Source of the DNA: Bacteroidota Order II. bacterium
Lineage (GTDB): Bacteria; Bacteroidota; Rhodothermia; Rhodothermales; UBA2364
Reading direction: 5' to 3'
DNA: 64,000 nt
Assembly (NCBI GenBank): GCA_016788705.1
Contig: JAEUSQ010000038.1
Location: forward strand, 2,194 to 66,193
The position numbers and the translations under genes are program-made. The notes below the pieces were generated by a model. That model saw only the letters and a list, made by a program, of their open reading frames with translations. It ran no database searches and was not told where the DNA came from. This document shows, in pieces, positions 3,143-56,903 of this stretch. Each line of letters begins with the position of its first letter. Position 1 is the stretch's first letter.

Positions 3143-3820
3143 ATGCAGCATTTATCGTCCCTTTTGCCAGAAACTGCGCCCAAAACAGTTTCACAGGTGT
3201 TGCCAGCGGCTTTTTTCGACCGTCACCCGCTGGAAGTAGCACGAAGCCTTATTGGCAAAAGAGTGGTTTTGGATTCTAATACGGGAACTGTCCTATCTGG
3301 AAAAATTGTAGAAACCGAAGCCTACCGCTGGGACGAGGCGGGGTGTCATGCTTGGAAAAACGCACTTCCGGATGGGCAAGTACGTGACAAAAATCTTATC
3401 TCTGCGGGACTCTTCGACGCGCCCGGAACCAGTTACGTCTATATCAGCTACGGTTTACACCGAATGTTGAATGTGGTTTGCGAGCCTAAAGGGGTAGGTG
3501 CGGGCGTATTAATTAGGGCCGTGGAACCCATTACAGGCTTGCACGCAATGCAGGTCAATCGGCCTGGGATCAGACGCCTAACCGATCTGACAAATGGGCC
3601 AGGAAAACTTTGTCGGGCGTTCGGGATTGATATTATACATCATCGTAAATCATTACAAAACGGCACTTTGCGCTTGATGGAAGGAACAGTAAACACCGAG
3701 TACACGATCGGCTGCTCCACCCGGATCGGTTTGGCCAAAGGCATGGGCGACGAGTTGCCGTGGCGTTTTTTTGAGGTACAAAACCCCTATGTTGGCAAGG
3801 GTAAAGTGGTCTTTTTTTAA
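3143..3820 (+). CDS. mpg: DNA-3-methyladenine glycosylase (Mpg/AAG family)
   Basis: FFDRHPLEVARSLIGKRVV...GKIVETEAY...GTSYVYISYGLHRMLNVV...GVLIRAVEP is the typical Mpg pattern. Confidence 0.85.
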   Translation: MQHLSSLLPETAPKTVSQVLPAAFFDRHPLEVARSLIGKRVVLDSNTGTVLSGKIVETEAYRWDEAGCHAWKNALPDGQVRDKNLISAGLFDAPGTSYVYISYGLHRMLNVVCEPKGVGAGVLIRAVEPITGLHAMQVNRPGIRRLTDLTNGPGKLCRAFGIDIIHHRKSLQNGTLRLMEGTVNTEYTIGCSTRIGLAKGMGDELPWRFFEVQNPYVGKGKVVFF

Positions 3821-4071
3821 CGTAACAAGACCAAGTATAAGGGCTATTCCTATTTAAACAAATCCAATTGTCGTTTCTCCATTGACCAAAGCCCTTTATT
3901 ACCAAGCCGTTTTTTTGCATCGGGTAAAAAAAACAATCCATGTGCATCCCAGTTACACAAAAGAGGCTGTTCTACCCGTACAAAACCATTGTTTTTTCGT
4001 GGTGCATTAAATTTTTTACGCCCCAAAAGTGGTTATCTTACATACTTCATCTGTAACCAAGCCATGCTATC

Positions 4072-27869: not shown

Positions 27870-28376
27870 ATGACAAATCACTTCTTTTTTTATTTAGATG
27901 CCCCCATCGGACCACTTGAAATTCGGGCAAATGACCAATTTGTCACAGCCCTTTATTTTGAGGGCGGAAAGGGGGCCTCGCCCATTCGCCAACCATCAAG
28001 CCCCGATCTGCCACCTCACCTCCAGACAGCCATAGAGGAACTTAATGCCTATTTTTCCGGACGGCTACGCACGTTTTCTTTCCCCATGCAGCAAACCGGA
28101 ACCAATTTCCAACTGCGGGTTTGGCAGGAACTGATGCATATTCCCTACGGGGAAACCCTTTCATACCTTGAACTATCACAGCGCATCGGAGACACCAAAG
28201 CCATACGGGCTGTTGGCACAGCGAATGGTCGAAACAACCTCAGTATTGTTGTTCCATGCCACCGCGTGATCGGAAAGAATGGCCAACTTACTGGATATGG
28301 TGGGGGAATTTGGCGCAAAGACTGGCTTTTAAATCACGAAGCCAAATGGGCGAAAGGGGTACTTACCTTGTTTTAA
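27870..28376 (+). CDS. ogt: Methylated-DNA--protein-cysteine methyltransferase
   Basis: Active site IVVPCHRVIG, preceded by IPYGETLSYLELSQRIG...AVGTANGRN. Confidence 0.9.
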   Translation: MTNHFFFYLDAPIGPLEIRANDQFVTALYFEGGKGASPIRQPSSPDLPPHLQTAIEELNAYFSGRLRTFSFPMQQTGTNFQLRVWQELMHIPYGETLSYLELSQRIGDTKAIRAVGTANGRNNLSIVVPCHRVIGKNGQLTGYGGGIWRKDWLLNHEAKWAKGVLTLF

Positions 28377-52037: not shown

Positions 52038-52400
52038 TTAGACCATTTTTTGCTCGCCCTCGGCACGGAGCAGGTCTATGGTCTCATACGCATGACGGAG
52101 ATGGGGGATCACAATCGTCCCACCTACCACAAGCGCCACATTCATGGCATCTTCCAGTTCTTCATTGGTAAAACCCGTTTCTACACACTGTATCAGATGG
52201 TAGTCAATACAATCATTGCAACGGAGGACCATCGAGGCGACCAAACCCAGTAACTCTTTGGTCTGACTGGGTAACGCACCGTCCCGATAAGCATTGGTGT
52301 CTAAATTATAAACACGCTTGATGCCCAAATGCGAGCCTTGCTCCAAAATACGTTTATTCATCCGATCTCTGTACAATCGAAACTGTTCTATTCTATTCAT
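52038..52400 (-). CDS. Carboxymuconolactone decarboxylase/AhpD-like family protein
   Basis: LRCNDCIDYH (CxxC...H of AhpD-like proteins); 120 aa. Confidence 0.8.
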   Translation of the reverse strand: MNRIEQFRLYRDRMNKRILEQGSHLGIKRVYNLDTNAYRDGALPSQTKELLGLVASMVLRCNDCIDYHLIQCVETGFTNEELEDAMNVALVVGGTIVIPHLRHAYETIDLLRAEGEQKMV

Positions 52401-52755
52401 CGGTTTTATTTGATAAATGAGTGAGGGTAGGTGGATCCAAGTGCATGGTTGGATCCCAAAGGTGTCGCGCCATTAAAACCAATCCTTCTGCTGTAAAATG
52501 TATGCCTTCTGACCTGAGGCGATCTTCCATAACAAAAGGGCCGCCAAAATGAAGCGCGCCAGACAAACCGCCAAAACGGTTCACCACCCGGTGTGCCGGA
52601 ACATCAGGCGGACATTGGTTTAAGGCCCACCCTACCGCCCTTGCGGATTGTCCCGTACCCAAATACCGGGCGATGTGGCCATAGGTGGTAACATTGCCAA
52701 AGGGCACTTGGCGTGCCACGGCATAAACCCGTTCGTAAAAATCGGAAGTGGGCAT
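52393..52755 (-). CDS. MGMT-fold protein lacking the acceptor cysteine (alkyltransferase-like, ATL)
   Basis: VPFGNVTTYGHIARYLG...ARAVGWAL...DVPAHRVVN shows PAHRV in place of PCHRV. There is no N-terminal MGMT domain. It overlaps the downstream AhpD-like gene by 8 nt. Confidence 0.8.
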   Translation of the reverse strand: MPTSDFYERVYAVARQVPFGNVTTYGHIARYLGTGQSARAVGWALNQCPPDVPAHRVVNRFGGLSGALHFGGPFVMEDRLRSEGIHFTAEGLVLMARHLWDPTMHLDPPTLTHLSNKTDE

Positions 52756-53015
52756 CAGTTGTGTGCTGGATGTTATTGTTTTAAGACAAAGAAGTTACGT
52801 CAGACCTGGACCACAAACAAGACTAATCCGCCAGAGTGTACAAGGTTGCAAGACAGTCAGAAGCCATGTAAGACATAAAAACGATGGCGACCCCAGAACG
52901 GATGCCGCCACGTTTAACCCACGAGAGATGCGTTTGAGAGGTGATTATTGCCCATCCATAACGGATTGGAATGGATAATAGTGCCTTTGCGGAGGAGAAT
53001 AAACCCTCTATTCAT

Positions 53016-53088
53016 GATTGTCGCAAATTGTCGCAGGCATGTCGCAAATTGTCGCAGGCATGTCGCAAATTGTCGCAGGCATGTCGCA
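53016..53088. repeat. Tandem 21-bp repeat carrying seven phased TGTCGCA heptamers
   Basis: Exact TGTCGCA copies start at 53019, 53029, 53040, 53050, 53061, 53071 and 53082. Spacers alternate AAT and GGCA. The unit is TGTCGCAAATTGTCGCAGGCA, present 3 times plus one extra heptamer. Confidence 0.95.
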
Positions 53089-53305
53089 TTTGTTGGGGTG
53101 TAGAAGCACGTTTTGAAGCAAAAAAACCGGTGCCAATCGTTTTGTGGTACATTCAAGTGCCACATTTTGTGCGCAGTTTCGCGGTTCATTGGCATGTTCA
53201 GGACAAGGGGAGTCTTGCGCCGCGTAGCCAGATTTGCTTATAGTCTTCGTCTTGTATGGTCAATCATCAGAGCTAAGTTAGAAAAAGTAGCGTTCTTCAA
53301 ACTTG

Positions 53306-53512
53306 TCATGTCAGGGCAAAGATACCCCAGTGCCGAATGCCTCCCTTAGGGTTGTACAACACCTGTTCGCTGACGCCGAGCAGTTCGGCCACTTCTTTTG
53401 CGCCCTTACCGTTTTTTTGCATCCTCACTGCCTCTTTTGTGTGAACACGCTGTCATACTTGCGCCGCAAGCGGTTCACACCTACAGGACTTACTTGTTGT
53501 TGTTGTTTTCAT
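53306..53512 (-). mobile_element. Decayed IS3-family OrfA-like (HTH_Tnp_1) fragment
   Basis: Three minus-strand frames read MKTTTTSKS..., ...NRLRRKYDSVFTQK and EAVRMQKNGKGAKEVAELLGVSEQVLYNPKG. Joined, they follow the rrkYs.eFK.eAV.l...G.s..eVAeelGvs...LynW pattern. At least two frame breaks are present, and no OrfB or inverted repeats were seen. Confidence 0.4.
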
Positions 53513-53562
53513 CACACAATATTAAGTTAGATTTGTGCCCGGCTAAATCAGACCACCTCACC

Positions 53563-53606
53563 AAAAAGACCCATTGTGCTTTACAACGGGTCTTTCTGAT
53601 TTTTTC
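53563..53606 (-). terminator. Rho-independent terminator after the large T9SS cargo gene
   Basis: A 13-bp stem AAAGACCCATTGT (53565-77) / ACAACGGGTCTTT (53583-95) has one G-U pair on the minus-strand RNA. A U-run follows on the minus strand, and a T-run also sits on the plus side. Confidence 0.8.
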
Positions 53607-53619
53607 AGCATAACTATTT

Positions 53620-56600
53620 TTACCGCATCAACACCATTTTACCGGTTTGGGCCATACGTCCGGTTTCGATACGGAAGAAGTACATGCCATTAGGAAGATT
53701 GGCATCAGGTTGCCATTGCACTTCATGGTGGCCTGCTGACCGGAATTCATCCGATACCAGTTGTAAACGCCGTCCTGTAAGGTCAAACACCGAGACTTGT
53801 ACTTTTTCTGGCGTACTGACCGAGAACCGAAGGGTTGTGGTATTGCTAAACGGATTGGGATAAACTTGCTGGATGGCCAGTCCATTGGGTAAAGAGGTTT
53901 CCTCTTCCCTGTCCACGCTTGCATCGGAAGGGGTGAGCACAAAATCAAATTGGCTGGTTCCATTTGCCAGTTGGATAGGTTGGTTCAGTGTCAGTGCCGC
54001 AGTTCCATCTTGGTATTGCCCCTTGTATCCCACCTTACTGGCATAGATCCGGAGTTGGGCACCCGCAGAGAGGTCGGTGATCTGGAAGGCGCCATCTTTT
54101 TCGGTGGTAGCAACGGTGACCGGATTTCCCGCTTCATCCATCGCATATACCGAGGCACCAGAAATCGGTTGCCCTTTATCCGATTTCACGACGCCTTTTA
54201 TCCGTGCCGAAGCATTGGCTTCTGTCGGCGTTTTATTTACATTCCCACCCATATCCAGCCAGCGATAGTACACCGGATTCAATCTAAGTACTAAGCCCTC
54301 CCAAGTGGGTTGATTGCTGTCAATCCGAAGCATCTCCGCCTGTGCAGGATCCCAAGTATCTTTGAAATACATGGGCATATGATAGGGTGCCTGTCCTTTT
54401 AAGACATAAGCACCATCCGGCACACCAGCCAAACGAAAACTGCCATCCTTTTGCGGAAGTGCGGTAAACACTTCTTCGGTATCCACATGCGTGAGTGTAA
54501 CCACACTGTTCTCAATGGGGGTACGGCTATCGTTCAGCACCCATCCAGCCACCACCCCATTTCCAGTTAGGCGCTGGGGTAGGGCCACCAATTCAATGGA
54601 CGTTTTGGCTCCACCCTCCACCTCTACCGCAACCGCCTCTTCTGGCTGGTTTACGTTACCGCTATATACCCGCAAGCCATCCGCAAAAGCCGCCACCTCG
54701 TATGCACCCCGAAAAACCTGATCGAATGCAAAACGGCCGTTCGCATCCGTTCGCGTGGTTTTTTGGAAAGAAGCCATCTTAAAGAACATCCAATCCATTC
54801 CATCCCCACCAGATCCCGCAGGTTTTAGCTCTACCAATGCGTTTTCAATGGCTTTTCCGTCTTTGGTTGTCAGTATTCCGACCACCGCACCAAAGATCGG
54901 CTTTGGGTCGAGTTGCACCTTCAGGTTTGAAAGGACTTCACCTTGTGACAACTGAATGACAGTGGCCTCGGCCATGTCTTTTTTGCCATCATACCAAGCA
55001 TCGTCCATCATATCCCCTTCGCCATACCAAGAGGTAAACAGGTTATATGCTCCTTCAGGGATGTCTTTGATGACGAAGGCGCCATTTTCATCGGCCATCG
55101 CAAAACCACCAAAGGTAGCCCTTCCATTTGCATTTCCTACAGGATCCAGAATGGCCCTTGAAAACAAGGAGAGATTGGCATGGGGCAAGGGCATTCCTGT
55201 TTTATCCGTTACAACGCCACTAATGACCCCCGTTCCTTTTTGAATGGGCATGTCAAACTGAATGTCTTCTGGATTACTTTTCCCGTTTTCAATGCTGATT
55301 AGGGTTGCTTCTTCGGGTGTTTCGGCTTGTTTATACCAGATATAGGCACAAGAAAACGAGATACAAGCACTAGCACTCAGCAGATAGTCGCCATCTGGTA
55401 GGTTATTGATGACAAACCTGCCTTCTGGATCGGTTTGGGTATAGAGACGGGTTGTAGCAACGGGGTCTAACGATTCCACAATCACCCCTGCTTGTGCGAT
55501 GGGGTTTCCATTTTTGTCTTTCACGACGCCAGAAATCCGTCCATTCATAAGCGGGACTACAAAATCGAGCCCGCTTCTTTCTGCATTTTCATTAATCGTC
55601 ACCATTTGGGGATAGGTTAACTGATACAGTTGTCCCCCATTGGATGTAAAGACCTGCACACTTAATTGATATGTTCCGGCCAGCACACGATCAAACCTAA
55701 ACCTGCCATCGGCTTCTAATTTTGTGTTATAGAACCCACGTCCAGAGGCACTCACTTCTGTGGAGGCAAGAAGCACATATCCAGCCGTCACGGGTGTCCC
55801 GTCTTTTGTGGTCACTTTTCCTGTAGCGCTCCCATACGTAAAGCGTACTTCCAATTTAAAATCTATCCCTTTCACTAGTTCGCCTTCTTTTACAGGAATT
55901 GATCTGGACTCGGTCATTTCTTTGGCGTTCGGATACCACACCGAAACGTCTAGTTCTGGGATGACCACCTGCACATAGTAGTCTTCTGGGTCGAGTTTTT
56001 CAAGGAGGTATTGGCCATTTTCATCGGTTTGGGTGGCATACCCACCCCAATTCCAATTGACACGATTGCTCGGAATGGCCATTACTTCTACATCAGCTAA
56101 GGGCCTCCCTTGCCCATCGGTAACCACACCCATGATTTGCCCTGGTAATCGCATTGAAATGTCTATACCGGAAACCGTCCCATCTTTTGTCAAGGTGACA
56201 GGGGTATAACCGCGAGGGTCATTCTCTTTTACATAAAACGAGGAACCGTAGCCATCGGCCCAGGCTTGCACCACATAAGTTCCCTCGGGCAGATCGGTGA
56301 TCACATAGTCACCGTTTTCATCGGTCGGTGCGCTGTTTCCTACACCGGATTGTGGATCTTGTGCCACAACTTTTGCATATGCAACGGGGTTTCTGGTTTT
56401 AGCATTGATAATACGACCCTTGATCACGCCACTTCCGGCAGGCGGCGGCGGATTAATGACACCGCCCAGATCAAAATTCACAAACTGGGTTATACTACCA
56501 TCTTTGACTTCAATGGGTTTGGAATCGGACTCAGACGTCCCGCCTCCATAGAATTGCTGGAAGCCCGATGCGGTAACGGCATATACATAATAAAGGCCCT

Positions 56601-56832
56601 CCGGCAGTTCTTTTAGTTCATACGTACCATCCGCAGCAACTTCGGCACGGGTCTTAAACACCGTAGGCGGCAGGCTATAGGCCACAACGGTGGCCGAGGG
56701 CATGTTACCCGTTGGGTCTAAAGGTAGGTTTACGGTTCCCCGTATGCTCCCGCCCACACGACCGGATGTCGCAAAAACGGGCAAAATGGCCATCCACATC
56801 AAAGCAATGGACAGATAATAGCGGACTTTCAT
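53620..56832 (-). CDS. Large secreted protein of tandem carboxypeptidase-regulatory-like (beta-sandwich) modules with T9SS C-terminal sorting domain
   Basis: The ATG at 56832 gives signal MKVRYYLSIALMWMAILPVFA. There are nine copies of the D-x-x-G-x-[FY]-x-[ILF]-x-x-[LV]-x-x-G-x-Y motif (e.g. DENGDYVITDLPEGTYVV, DPEGRFVINNLPDGDYLL). The C-terminus QVYPNPFSNTTTLRFSV...VSVFDLTGRRL...NGMYFFRIETG is a T9SS CTD. Confidence 0.8.
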   Translation of the reverse strand: MKVRYYLSIALMWMAILPVFATSGRVGGSIRGTVNLPLDPTGNMPSATVVAYSLPPTVFKTRAEVAADGTYELKELPEGLYYVYAVTASGFQQFYGGGTSESDSKPIEVKDGSITQFVNFDLGGVINPPPPAGSGVIKGRIINAKTRNPVAYAKVVAQDPQSGVGNSAPTDENGDYVITDLPEGTYVVQAWADGYGSSFYVKENDPRGYTPVTLTKDGTVSGIDISMRLPGQIMGVVTDGQGRPLADVEVMAIPSNRVNWNWGGYATQTDENGQYLLEKLDPEDYYVQVVIPELDVSVWYPNAKEMTESRSIPVKEGELVKGIDFKLEVRFTYGSATGKVTTKDGTPVTAGYVLLASTEVSASGRGFYNTKLEADGRFRFDRVLAGTYQLSVQVFTSNGGQLYQLTYPQMVTINENAERSGLDFVVPLMNGRISGVVKDKNGNPIAQAGVIVESLDPVATTRLYTQTDPEGRFVINNLPDGDYLLSASACISFSCAYIWYKQAETPEEATLISIENGKSNPEDIQFDMPIQKGTGVISGVVTDKTGMPLPHANLSLFSRAILDPVGNANGRATFGGFAMADENGAFVIKDIPEGAYNLFTSWYGEGDMMDDAWYDGKKDMAEATVIQLSQGEVLSNLKVQLDPKPIFGAVVGILTTKDGKAIENALVELKPAGSGGDGMDWMFFKMASFQKTTRTDANGRFAFDQVFRGAYEVAAFADGLRVYSGNVNQPEEAVAVEVEGGAKTSIELVALPQRLTGNGVVAGWVLNDSRTPIENSVVTLTHVDTEEVFTALPQKDGSFRLAGVPDGAYVLKGQAPYHMPMYFKDTWDPAQAEMLRIDSNQPTWEGLVLRLNPVYYRWLDMGGNVNKTPTEANASARIKGVVKSDKGQPISGASVYAMDEAGNPVTVATTEKDGAFQITDLSAGAQLRIYASKVGYKGQYQDGTAALTLNQPIQLANGTSQFDFVLTPSDASVDREEETSLPNGLAIQQVYPNPFSNTTTLRFSVSTPEKVQVSVFDLTGRRLQLVSDEFRSAGHHEVQWQPDANLPNGMYFFRIETGRMAQTGKMVLMR

Positions 56833-56903
56833 GTCTGTTAGGATTTGGGTCAAAGGTTATTTATTCTGATTACCCCACAGAATCCCCGAACACCCAACCC
56901 CAG

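Follow-up and report, generated by a model that had tools for sequence, protein, structure and literature searches.

Why should seven exact copies of one heptamer stand a helical turn apart in a gap that encodes nothing? The question is raised by a 64,000-nt stretch from a Rhodothermales genome (Bacteroidota Order II. bacterium, contig JAEUSQ010000038.1 of assembly GCA_016788705.1), called here the window, in which the heptamer TGTCGCA forms a short array upstream of a gene for an alkyltransferase-like (ATL) protein. ATL is the sole gene linked to the array both here and in the nearest relative, the position and the core of the array are conserved between the two species, and in both a terminator-like hairpin lies between the array and the gene. 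We read the array as a helically phased direct-repeat operator, i.e., a cis-acting site for a protein whose target would be a short RNA or leader and possibly the ATL operon too, and we put the chance that this reading is right at about even. The elements on which the argument is built are the following.

53019..53088, minus strand: the array, seven exact heptamers (TGTCGCA on the plus strand, TGCGACA on the ATL strand).
53089..53100, minus strand: conserved distal flank CACCCCAACAAA (ATL strand), directly before the first heptamer and within a 31-nt conserved island.
52975..53003, minus strand: promoter-like element TTTATT-N17-TATTAT, its -35-like hexamer beginning 15 nt past the last heptamer.
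52877..52949, minus strand: conserved non-coding block of about 70 nt (counterpart in the relative: L311 6843-6918).
52393..52755, minus strand: ATL-like gene, with the MGMT DNA-binding domain only (PF01035, by Pfam), Cys-less, PAHRV replacing PCHRV.

Direct reading of positions 52500-53700 placed TGTCGCA on the plus strand at 53019, 53029, 53040, 53050, 53061, 53071 and 53082, with spacers alternating between AAT and GGCA; the resulting 10/11-bp spacing makes a 21-bp unit present 3.3 times. Tandem Repeats Finder reported the same array (period 21, 3.3 copies, 100% matches, score 140) as by far the top-scoring tandem repeat of the window, among 18 weak ones. These results clearly confirmed the heptamer positions, the spacer alternation, the 21-bp unit and the phased geometry that had been proposed from the letters alone (below, the sequence-only reading). 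The array sits 264-333 bp from the ATL start (52755, minus strand), inside an 864-bp gap (52756-53619). Because TGTCGCA occurs only three more times in the window, and shuffled versions average 6.5 copies per window, seven copies within 70 bp are no effect of composition, and an origin by chance was rejected. No second heptamer pair above chance, at up to three mismatches, was found elsewhere in the window.

Two other interpretations of the repeats were discarded. A CRISPR array has repeats of at least 23 nt and unique spacers alike in length, whereas here the spacers are 3-4 nt long and themselves repeated, just as the sequence-only reading had argued. A coding repeat was likewise dismissed: the open reading frames (ORFs) that cross the array are repeat-generated, as had been claimed, and have no Pfam match, and the array-crossing ORFs of the relative stop elsewhere. 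An assembly artefact had been named as a possible source of the array. Contigs of two other sequencing runs (SRR13860396 and SRR10555724) match the ATL gene and its upstream flank without a difference, and each of them breaks off within the array, about 1.5 units in. Assemblers based on k-mers typically stop at a repeat. The array is thus real, and a single-assembly artefact is excluded for its first ~1.5 units; the count of seven copies comes from one assembly. On the plus strand, 55 nt past the array, there is also a terminator-like hairpin (TGTGGTAC...GTGCCACA, then TTTTG; 53143-53170), which is not conserved in the relative.

The comparative evidence comes from this relative. Its ATL (loci L311-L314 and L322-L326) is the closest homologue of the window ATL, 78% identical, the next ones reaching 69% at most. 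Just as in the window, the gap upstream of the relative's ATL bears an array in the equivalent position: two TGCGACA heptamers stand 11 bp apart, and behind them a 21-bp unit, TTGCGTCATCGAGCGGYAAAA, is repeated about 8.5 times (Tandem Repeats Finder: 21-bp period, 8.5 copies, 89% matches). When the two gaps (600-860 bp long) were compared by sensitive blastn, only two islands were found to survive; the rest could not be aligned, including the segment from array to block and most of that from block to ATL start. One island, of 31 nt (window 53100->53070 vs. L311 6563-6593; 90% identity, E 1.6e-6), reads CACCCCAA(C/G)AAATGCGACAT(G/T)C(C/T)TGCGACAA and comprises the distal flank and the first two heptamers, so that the relative's conserved pair has its orthologues in the two ATL-distal heptamers (53071-53088). 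The other, of 57 nt (window 52933->52877 vs. L311 6855-6911; 91% identity, E 3e-17), lies within the non-coding block.

Since the first pair and its flank make up one of the two surviving islands between species with 78% identical ATL proteins, the heptamers appear to be under purifying selection. Only the flank and the first two heptamers being conserved between the gaps, the ancestral element would have been the pair TGCGACA-N4-TGCGACA, and the sequences indicate that each lineage later amplified its own, different 21-bp unit. The relative's unit nevertheless holds a GCGnCA core twice, 10 nt apart, and the steps between its (T/A)GCGnCA sites measure 10, 11, 21 or 22 bp, so that all share one helical phase. 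The alignment of orthologous gaps that the sequence-only reading had proposed thus showed the heptamer pair and its flank to be conserved and the amplified unit to differ, with 8.5 copies in the relative, or 4.5 in a short contig from another of its samples.

Between the array and ATL we found two elements beyond those described in the sequence-only reading, a conserved terminator block and a promoter-like element. The block (core TCTCGTGGGTTAAACGTGGCG) lies 85-125 nt upstream of the ATL start in the two species. Its 5′ part, TCACCTCTCAAACGCATCTCTCGTGGGTTAAAC, looks single-stranded; after it come a GC-rich hairpin at about 52884-52911 and a T-run at 52877-52881. The hairpin is predicted in both species, with a stem of 9-10 bp followed by AUCGUUUUU on the ATL strand. 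The three substitutions that separate the two stems all preserve pairing (GC/GU, GU/AU, UG/UA), which, coming from two sequences, gives weak evidence of covariation. A GC-rich hairpin with an immediate U-run is the hallmark of intrinsic (Rho-independent) terminators, and the block indeed looks like one, directed along the ATL strand. No second copy of the block is present in the window. A leader peptide was rejected because a 1-nt indel breaks the common reading frame between the species. The block is treated here as a candidate small RNA or leader/attenuator.

The promoter-like element has a counterpart in the relative, TTTACT-N17-TATACT (L311 6798-6826), which is detected by the consensus scanner and likewise begins 15 nt from the last site. 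A transcript starting from this putative promoter would be about 85-92 nt long in both species and would end at the conserved terminator. It would begin with a non-conserved 5′ end, continue with a conserved, single-stranded-looking segment of 30 nt and finish with the terminator, a layout that would suit a small RNA or a leader under terminator control. Because the terminator block and the promoter-like element both stand between the array and ATL, the arrangement suggests a control aimed first at a short RNA or leader and not at the ATL start codon, which is 260-330 bp off. Two other control elements were considered by reading and set aside: a sigma-54 -24/-12 element before ATL, whose spacing is wrong, and a resemblance to the Ada box (AAAGCGCA), which does not have the AAT-N6-GCAA spacing of that box.

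The wider neighbourhood of the array includes the following features, all on the same strand.

52038..52400, minus strand: CMD/AhpD-like gene, overlapping the ATL stop by 8 nt; it stands next to ATL here and not in the relative.
53330-53490 (approximate), minus strand: relic of an IS3-family OrfA N-terminus (RRKYDSVFTQ / KEAVRMQKNGKGAKEVAELLGVSEQVLYNPKGG) with a frameshift and stops.
53562-53598, minus strand: hairpin and T-run just past the type IX secretion system (T9SS) cargo gene, its likely terminator.
53620-56853, minus strand: T9SS cargo gene, 1077 aa.

The identification of ATL, the AhpD-like gene, the T9SS cargo gene and the IS3-type relic, already proposed by the sequence-only reading, holds by Pfam and by the recognition of the relic as an IS3 OrfA. 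Owing to the 8-nt overlap, the CMD/AhpD-like gene belongs to the ATL operon in the window species. In the relative the neighbours are entirely different: a divergent TetR-efflux operon lies upstream of its ATL, where the window has the T9SS gene and the IS3 relic, and a 42-aa ORF and a TRAM methyltransferase gene lie downstream, where the window has the CMD gene. Neither a CMD gene nor an IS relic is found beside the relative's ATL, and the 42-aa ORF was rejected as a remnant of CMD. With wholly different flanks in the two species, it is ATL and the block that the array accompanies. The T9SS gene cannot own the block as its terminator, as it has a hairpin of its own at 53562-53598 and the relative's upstream gene points away. 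The same hairpin explains the only hit, a sub-threshold Thr_leader match at the T9SS terminator, obtained by cmscan against Rfam over 52600-53700 (both strands, E<=1). Twenty-five kilobases from the Cys-less ATL, at 27870-28376 on the plus strand, we also observed a canonical two-domain Ogt/MGMT with the PCHRV active site, so that this genome keeps a true alkyltransferase and an ATL both.

Taken together, these observations can be joined into the following tentative mechanism. The half-site core would be TGnCGC(A/T) on the plus strand, that is, (T/A)GCGnCA on the ATL strand. Starting from the ancestral pair, slippage or unequal exchange would have raised the two-site 21-bp unit to seven sites, while in the sister lineage a different 21-bp unit would have been raised to about 8.5 copies. 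The amplification is judged recent because the extra copies are perfectly identical, and the first pair is taken as the functional core because it is conserved together with its flank. Each 21-bp unit, with two sites over two helical turns, would hold a head-to-tail dimer of winged-helix type; judging by analogous systems, the binder is probably of that type, since phased perfect repeats are typical cognate sites of winged-helix proteins. Successive units would align such dimers on one face of the DNA, allowing cooperative, filament-like binding, and the bound protein would activate or repress the small RNA or terminator-controlled leader of the ATL-AhpD-like operon. By our own arithmetic the site centres would lie at about -55, -65, -76 and so on from the putative start, which would suit either class-I-type activation or a repressive filament. 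The amplification itself may have been adaptive, giving tighter or graded control, or it may have been neutral.

The heptamer was also followed beyond this locus. One genome per species (185,579 genomes) was scanned for three TGTCGCA copies at 10-11-bp spacing, which yielded at least 120 loci against an expectation from base composition of about 1 (our own estimate). A viral collection gave 118 loci, about 40 of which belong to one Collinsella prophage family, and three composition-matched control heptamers gave 38, 14 and 16. Measured against the controls, the enrichment is modest: TGTCGCA is moderately over-represented, and phased heptamer arrays are common in mobile DNA. A universal TGTCGCA-specific element could be upheld only in part, its apparent enrichment shrinking with the controls and the Collinsella family. 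The variant with the AAT spacer was found in a metagenome scan on two unrelated contigs only, and searching the literature for TGTCGCA returned only primer sequences and unrelated matches. No ATL gene adjoins any of the 240 array loci listed, the nearest case being one MGMT-like gene 3 kb away.

When the ORFs neighbouring these arrays were clustered, two protein families emerged, among the matches listed, whose stop codon lies 4-25 bp from the array. Fic proteins (about 345 aa) occur at no fewer than seven loci, including Chlamydiota, Chloroflexota, Bdellovibrionales, Planctomycetota and Bacteroidota metagenome-assembled genomes (MAGs); proteins with SLFN_AlbA_2 and HATPase_c_4 domains (about 490 aa) precede arrays in Collinsella, Clostridia and Mycoavidus. 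A common winged helix with the motif RRT(L/A)QR(D/V)L...G(L/I)...G....Y forms the C-terminus of the two families. Relatives of both were then fetched from viral contigs by protein alone, to remove ascertainment bias. All three complete Fic loci retrieved in this way bear phased heptamers directly after the stop (TACGACA x3; TGTGACA/TACGACA/TGCGACA x5; TAGGACA x5), and six of the seven AlbA_2 relatives checked (at least 40% identity) carry arrays of 10-11-bp repeats that adjoin the stop or lie close to it (GGTCCTAGTA x3, TTTATAGYRG x10-11, TTTATTGTAG x15, and others). The loci concerned are these.

L014, L020, L029, L032, L061, L100, L104: Fic loci.
L008, L012, L016, L047, L054, L067, L071, L072, L075, L093, L094, L097, L098: AlbA_2-HATPase loci.
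L327, L328, L330, L332, L335, L336, L338, L339: loci fetched by protein.

Across many phyla and viral contigs, the Fic and AlbA_2 arrays thus comprise 3-15 copies beginning 0-25 bp after the stop, with a motif that varies by locus. A constant architecture with a changing motif is what co-evolving protein-site pairs would show. No description of this arrangement of a gene for a winged helix-turn-helix (wHTH) protein followed by an array was found in the literature searched, for either family. In the window array the heptamer has the same TnnGACA form, reading TGCGACA on the ATL strand. A Fic or AlbA_2 wHTH was not detected in the window at E<1 (tblastn and hidden Markov model search of all stop-to-stop translations), and on the ATL strand no stop codon immediately precedes the first heptamer, although the arrays of these families stand within about 25 bp of the stop of a wHTH gene. 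The window array is therefore not a member of this group, since neither such a gene nor a pseudogene is found in the window.

Phage contigs were seen to carry TGTCGCA arrays directly, or about 110-150 bp, after the stop of large primase-helicase or VirE-like replication genes with a C-terminal helix-turn-helix (L133, L179, L193, L197, L227; L129, L141, L155, L172, L185, L205, L209; L178); in one case the neighbours are a VirE-like gene and dnaB. Such arrays probably serve as origin iterons. In a Dehalococcoidia MAG (OY282365.1), an element of about 150 bp recurs in at least 14 scattered intergenic copies (L011, L013, L021, L022, L038, L042-L044, L049, L062, L080, L110, L111), each with 3-10 TGTCGCA-TA(A/G)G repeats between conserved flanks, the repeat number varying between copies. 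They were rejected as transposon ends, their neighbours being housekeeping-like by eye, and are best called dispersed intergenic repeats. In Collinsella (L047, at 3224-3385 and 3907-4068; L098), the last ~110 bp of the AlbA_2-HATPase gene, the array and an additional set of ATGTCCGGAA repeats are duplicated in tandem; the duplicate lies about 683-740 bp downstream with 81-90% identity.

The operator reading has to be weighed against several facts and rival explanations. It is weakened by the absence from the window of any response regulator or of a relative of the Fic/AlbA_2 wHTH (ORF list inspected, about 19 ORFs scanned with Pfam), and by the lack of any sign of a regulon, as the site pair has no further copy in the 64 kb. 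Among the ATL homologues examined, the element is confined to two species: more distant homologues (59-69% identity) have another gene directly ahead and no such gap, and no array was found upstream of five such homologues. The -35 hexamer in the window matches the consensus at three of six positions, below the scanner threshold, and that consensus may not be the host's. Finally, the perfect identity of the copies speaks for a very recent, possibly selectively neutral amplification, and the second sample of the relative (L326) has 4.5 units instead of the 8.5 of L311, which reflects either copy-number variation or collapse in k-mer assembly. The last two points lead to a neutral minisatellite, in which a slippage-prone 21-bp unit has expanded and at most the ancestral two-site element is functional, the extra copies being passengers. 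The expansion of different units in the two lineages and the 14-38 viral loci found with each control heptamer fit this account too. It is nevertheless hard to reconcile with two independent expansions at one site, both with a two-turn period of 21 bp, with the 10-nt internal offset of GCGnCA in the relative's unit (about 0.002 for a random 21-mer by our own estimate), and with a first pair and flank conserved against a fully diverged background; we regard it as unlikely, though deserving serious weight. A bolder proposal goes in the opposite direction and assigns the array to a widespread kind of cis-element, so far undescribed, made of TnnGACA-type docking sites for the wHTH of Fic AMPylases, Schlafen/AlbA_2-HATPase proteins and phage replication proteins; one such element would have been captured here as the amplifiable operator of a small RNA or leader controlling ATL, an alkylation-damage sensor. 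This seems to us doubtful, and a still bolder variant has ATL itself, a helix-turn-helix DNA-binding protein and the only conserved neighbour, as the putative binder. The array might otherwise be an orphan landing pad for a Fic or Schlafen/AlbA_2-HATPase-type protein encoded elsewhere or lost, a sub-case of the operator reading. The TGCGACA arrays after the stop of Fic genes (at least seven loci, several phyla) and of AlbA_2-HATPase genes (Collinsella, Clostridia, Mycoavidus) speak for it, as does the retrieval of TnnGACA motifs after Fic genes by protein alone. The missing gene or pseudogene, the absence in either species of an upstream gene whose stop the array could abut, and the relative's amplified sites, which break the GACA core (GTCA/GGCA), make this improbable.

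The two remaining alternatives fare worse. The sequence-only reading had offered, besides a regulator landing pad for the ATL operon, a relic of a lost mobile or plasmid-derived element. Such a relic might be a set of iterons left by a vanished replicon, a centromere like parC, or transposase sites near the end of an element tied to the IS3 fragment. The IS3 OrfA relic does lie 220-400 bp from the array, TGTCGCA arrays are frequent in phage contigs and often adjoin primase or helicase genes, and the differing neighbours of the ATL segment show that it has moved or that its surroundings were rearranged; tandem direct repeats phased at ~10-11 bp are also what ParR/parC or ParB/parS centromeres display. 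However, the relative has the array without the relic, so the repeats do not move with an insertion sequence, and the end of that sequence would be expected near 53500-53560, since the start of the relic's OrfA faces away from the array. No rep, par, integrase or transposase gene flanks the array, and no partition operon (parMR, parAB) lies within 5 kb on either side; its neighbours are ATL, CMD, the T9SS cargo gene and the IS3 relic, with no adjoining initiator gene (Rep or primase-helicase) as iterons would have. The GC content is flat at about 0.48 (0.44-0.53) over 52.3-53.9 kb, with no AT-rich unwinding dip in that interval, where no DnaA-box search was made. Blastn of the gap against 72,556 plasmids and 50,697 phages gave no match, and the gene list of the window is that of chromosomal housekeeping, i.e., of an ordinary chromosome. 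Tied to ATL and not to the relic, the array is very unlikely to descend from a mobile element. Hardly better supported is an RNA sponge, in which the array would be transcribed on the ATL strand within a 220-350-nt RNA ending at the terminator and would offer multiple protein sites in the manner of CsrB/RsmZ. RNAs of the CsrB type vary in repeat number between species, as the array does, and the ATL strand carries a conserved intrinsic terminator further downstream. Yet the predicted folds of the two array RNAs do not surpass those of shuffled sequences (z -1.1 and -1.0) or display the motif in regular hairpin loops, no promoter-like element was found upstream of the array, no Rfam match was obtained, and 10/11-bp phasing has a meaning for B-DNA and not for RNA; such a sponge is accordingly a slim prospect. 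Of the two proposals of the sequence-only reading, then, the mobile relic is not supported, while the landing pad for the ATL operon is supported in a refined form, by the 31-nt island and by the 21-bp-period array upstream of the relative's ATL.

If a protein does bind the array, we would have here an operator enlarged by tandem amplification, from an initial pair of sites to at least seven. Its independent growth in two sister lineages, by whole two-turn units, would be a natural experiment on the evolution of cooperative sites, and it would provide a first handle on the regulation of an ATL gene or of an adjacent small RNA in a Rhodothermales-type lineage. As for the arrays of the Fic and Schlafen-like ATPase genes, they may be a sign that these poorly understood proteins are tethered to DNA or regulated in cis.

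Among known systems, operators of the OmpR/PhoB family are close in geometry. A phosphorylated response regulator binds such operators, which are placed at the -35 hexamer of the regulated promoter or just ahead of it. They consist of 6-7-bp direct repeats placed 10-11 bp centre to centre, as the array does, with 3-4-bp spacers, one site per turn and a head-to-tail dimer over about 21-22 bp, and several units can line up upstream of a promoter. The Pho boxes of E. coli and Streptomyces are comparable direct-repeat operators. The sites of PhoP in M. tuberculosis are direct repeats of 7 bp, set 4 bp apart (PMC4832192). The window array differs from the Pho and PhoP sites in its motif (TGTCGCA vs. 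CTGTCAT, GTTCACC and others) and in having seven perfect instead of 2-4 degenerate copies; moreover, no response regulator is encoded nearby, ATL is no known member of such a regulon, and binding is here a prediction.

Plasmid iterons and ParR-parC centromeres share with the array the tandem, helically phased direct repeats, which one protein binds cooperatively in those systems; parC of pSK41, for instance, has 20-bp units of two 10-bp half-repeats. Unlike them, the array has no rep or par genes and no AT-rich region, is chromosomal, and is retained beside a repair gene in a second species. The heptads of the Vibrio cholerae ctxAB promoter, TTTTGAT x3-8, are reported to vary in copy number by strain and to modulate the recruitment of regulators (bioRxiv 10.1101/2021.05.14.444153). 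They too form a tandem heptamer array upstream of a promoter, but they are contiguous, with a 7-bp period, and AT-rich, whereas the window array has a 10.5-bp period and GC-rich cores. The arrays of the Fic/AlbA_2 genes and of the phage primase-helicase genes share the same heptamer or its TnnGACA kin, the 10-11-bp phasing, the alternating spacers and the 3-15 near-perfect copies; they begin 0-25 bp (up to ~110 bp in one phage group) after the stop of the presumed binder, while the window array has no such gene.

The behaviour proposed here is known from small wHTH proteins of the BldC/Xis type. Head-to-tail multimers of BldC form on direct repeats, the number of which differs from one promoter to another (PMC5859096), and wHTH oligomers of recombination directionality factors such as RdfS are reported to behave similarly (PMC11963761). 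Just as in these systems, where binding is cooperative, the array has its direct repeats, variable in number, along one side of the double helix. AATTXXXX(C), the BldC consensus, is low in information; it occurs once per 21 bp here (AATTGTCGC), possibly by chance, and no BldC-like gene was seen in the window. The element would be a phased direct-repeat operator of a known kind, made unusual by its perfection, by its lineage-specific amplification, by its place before a putative short, terminator-ended transcript, and by its link with ATL.

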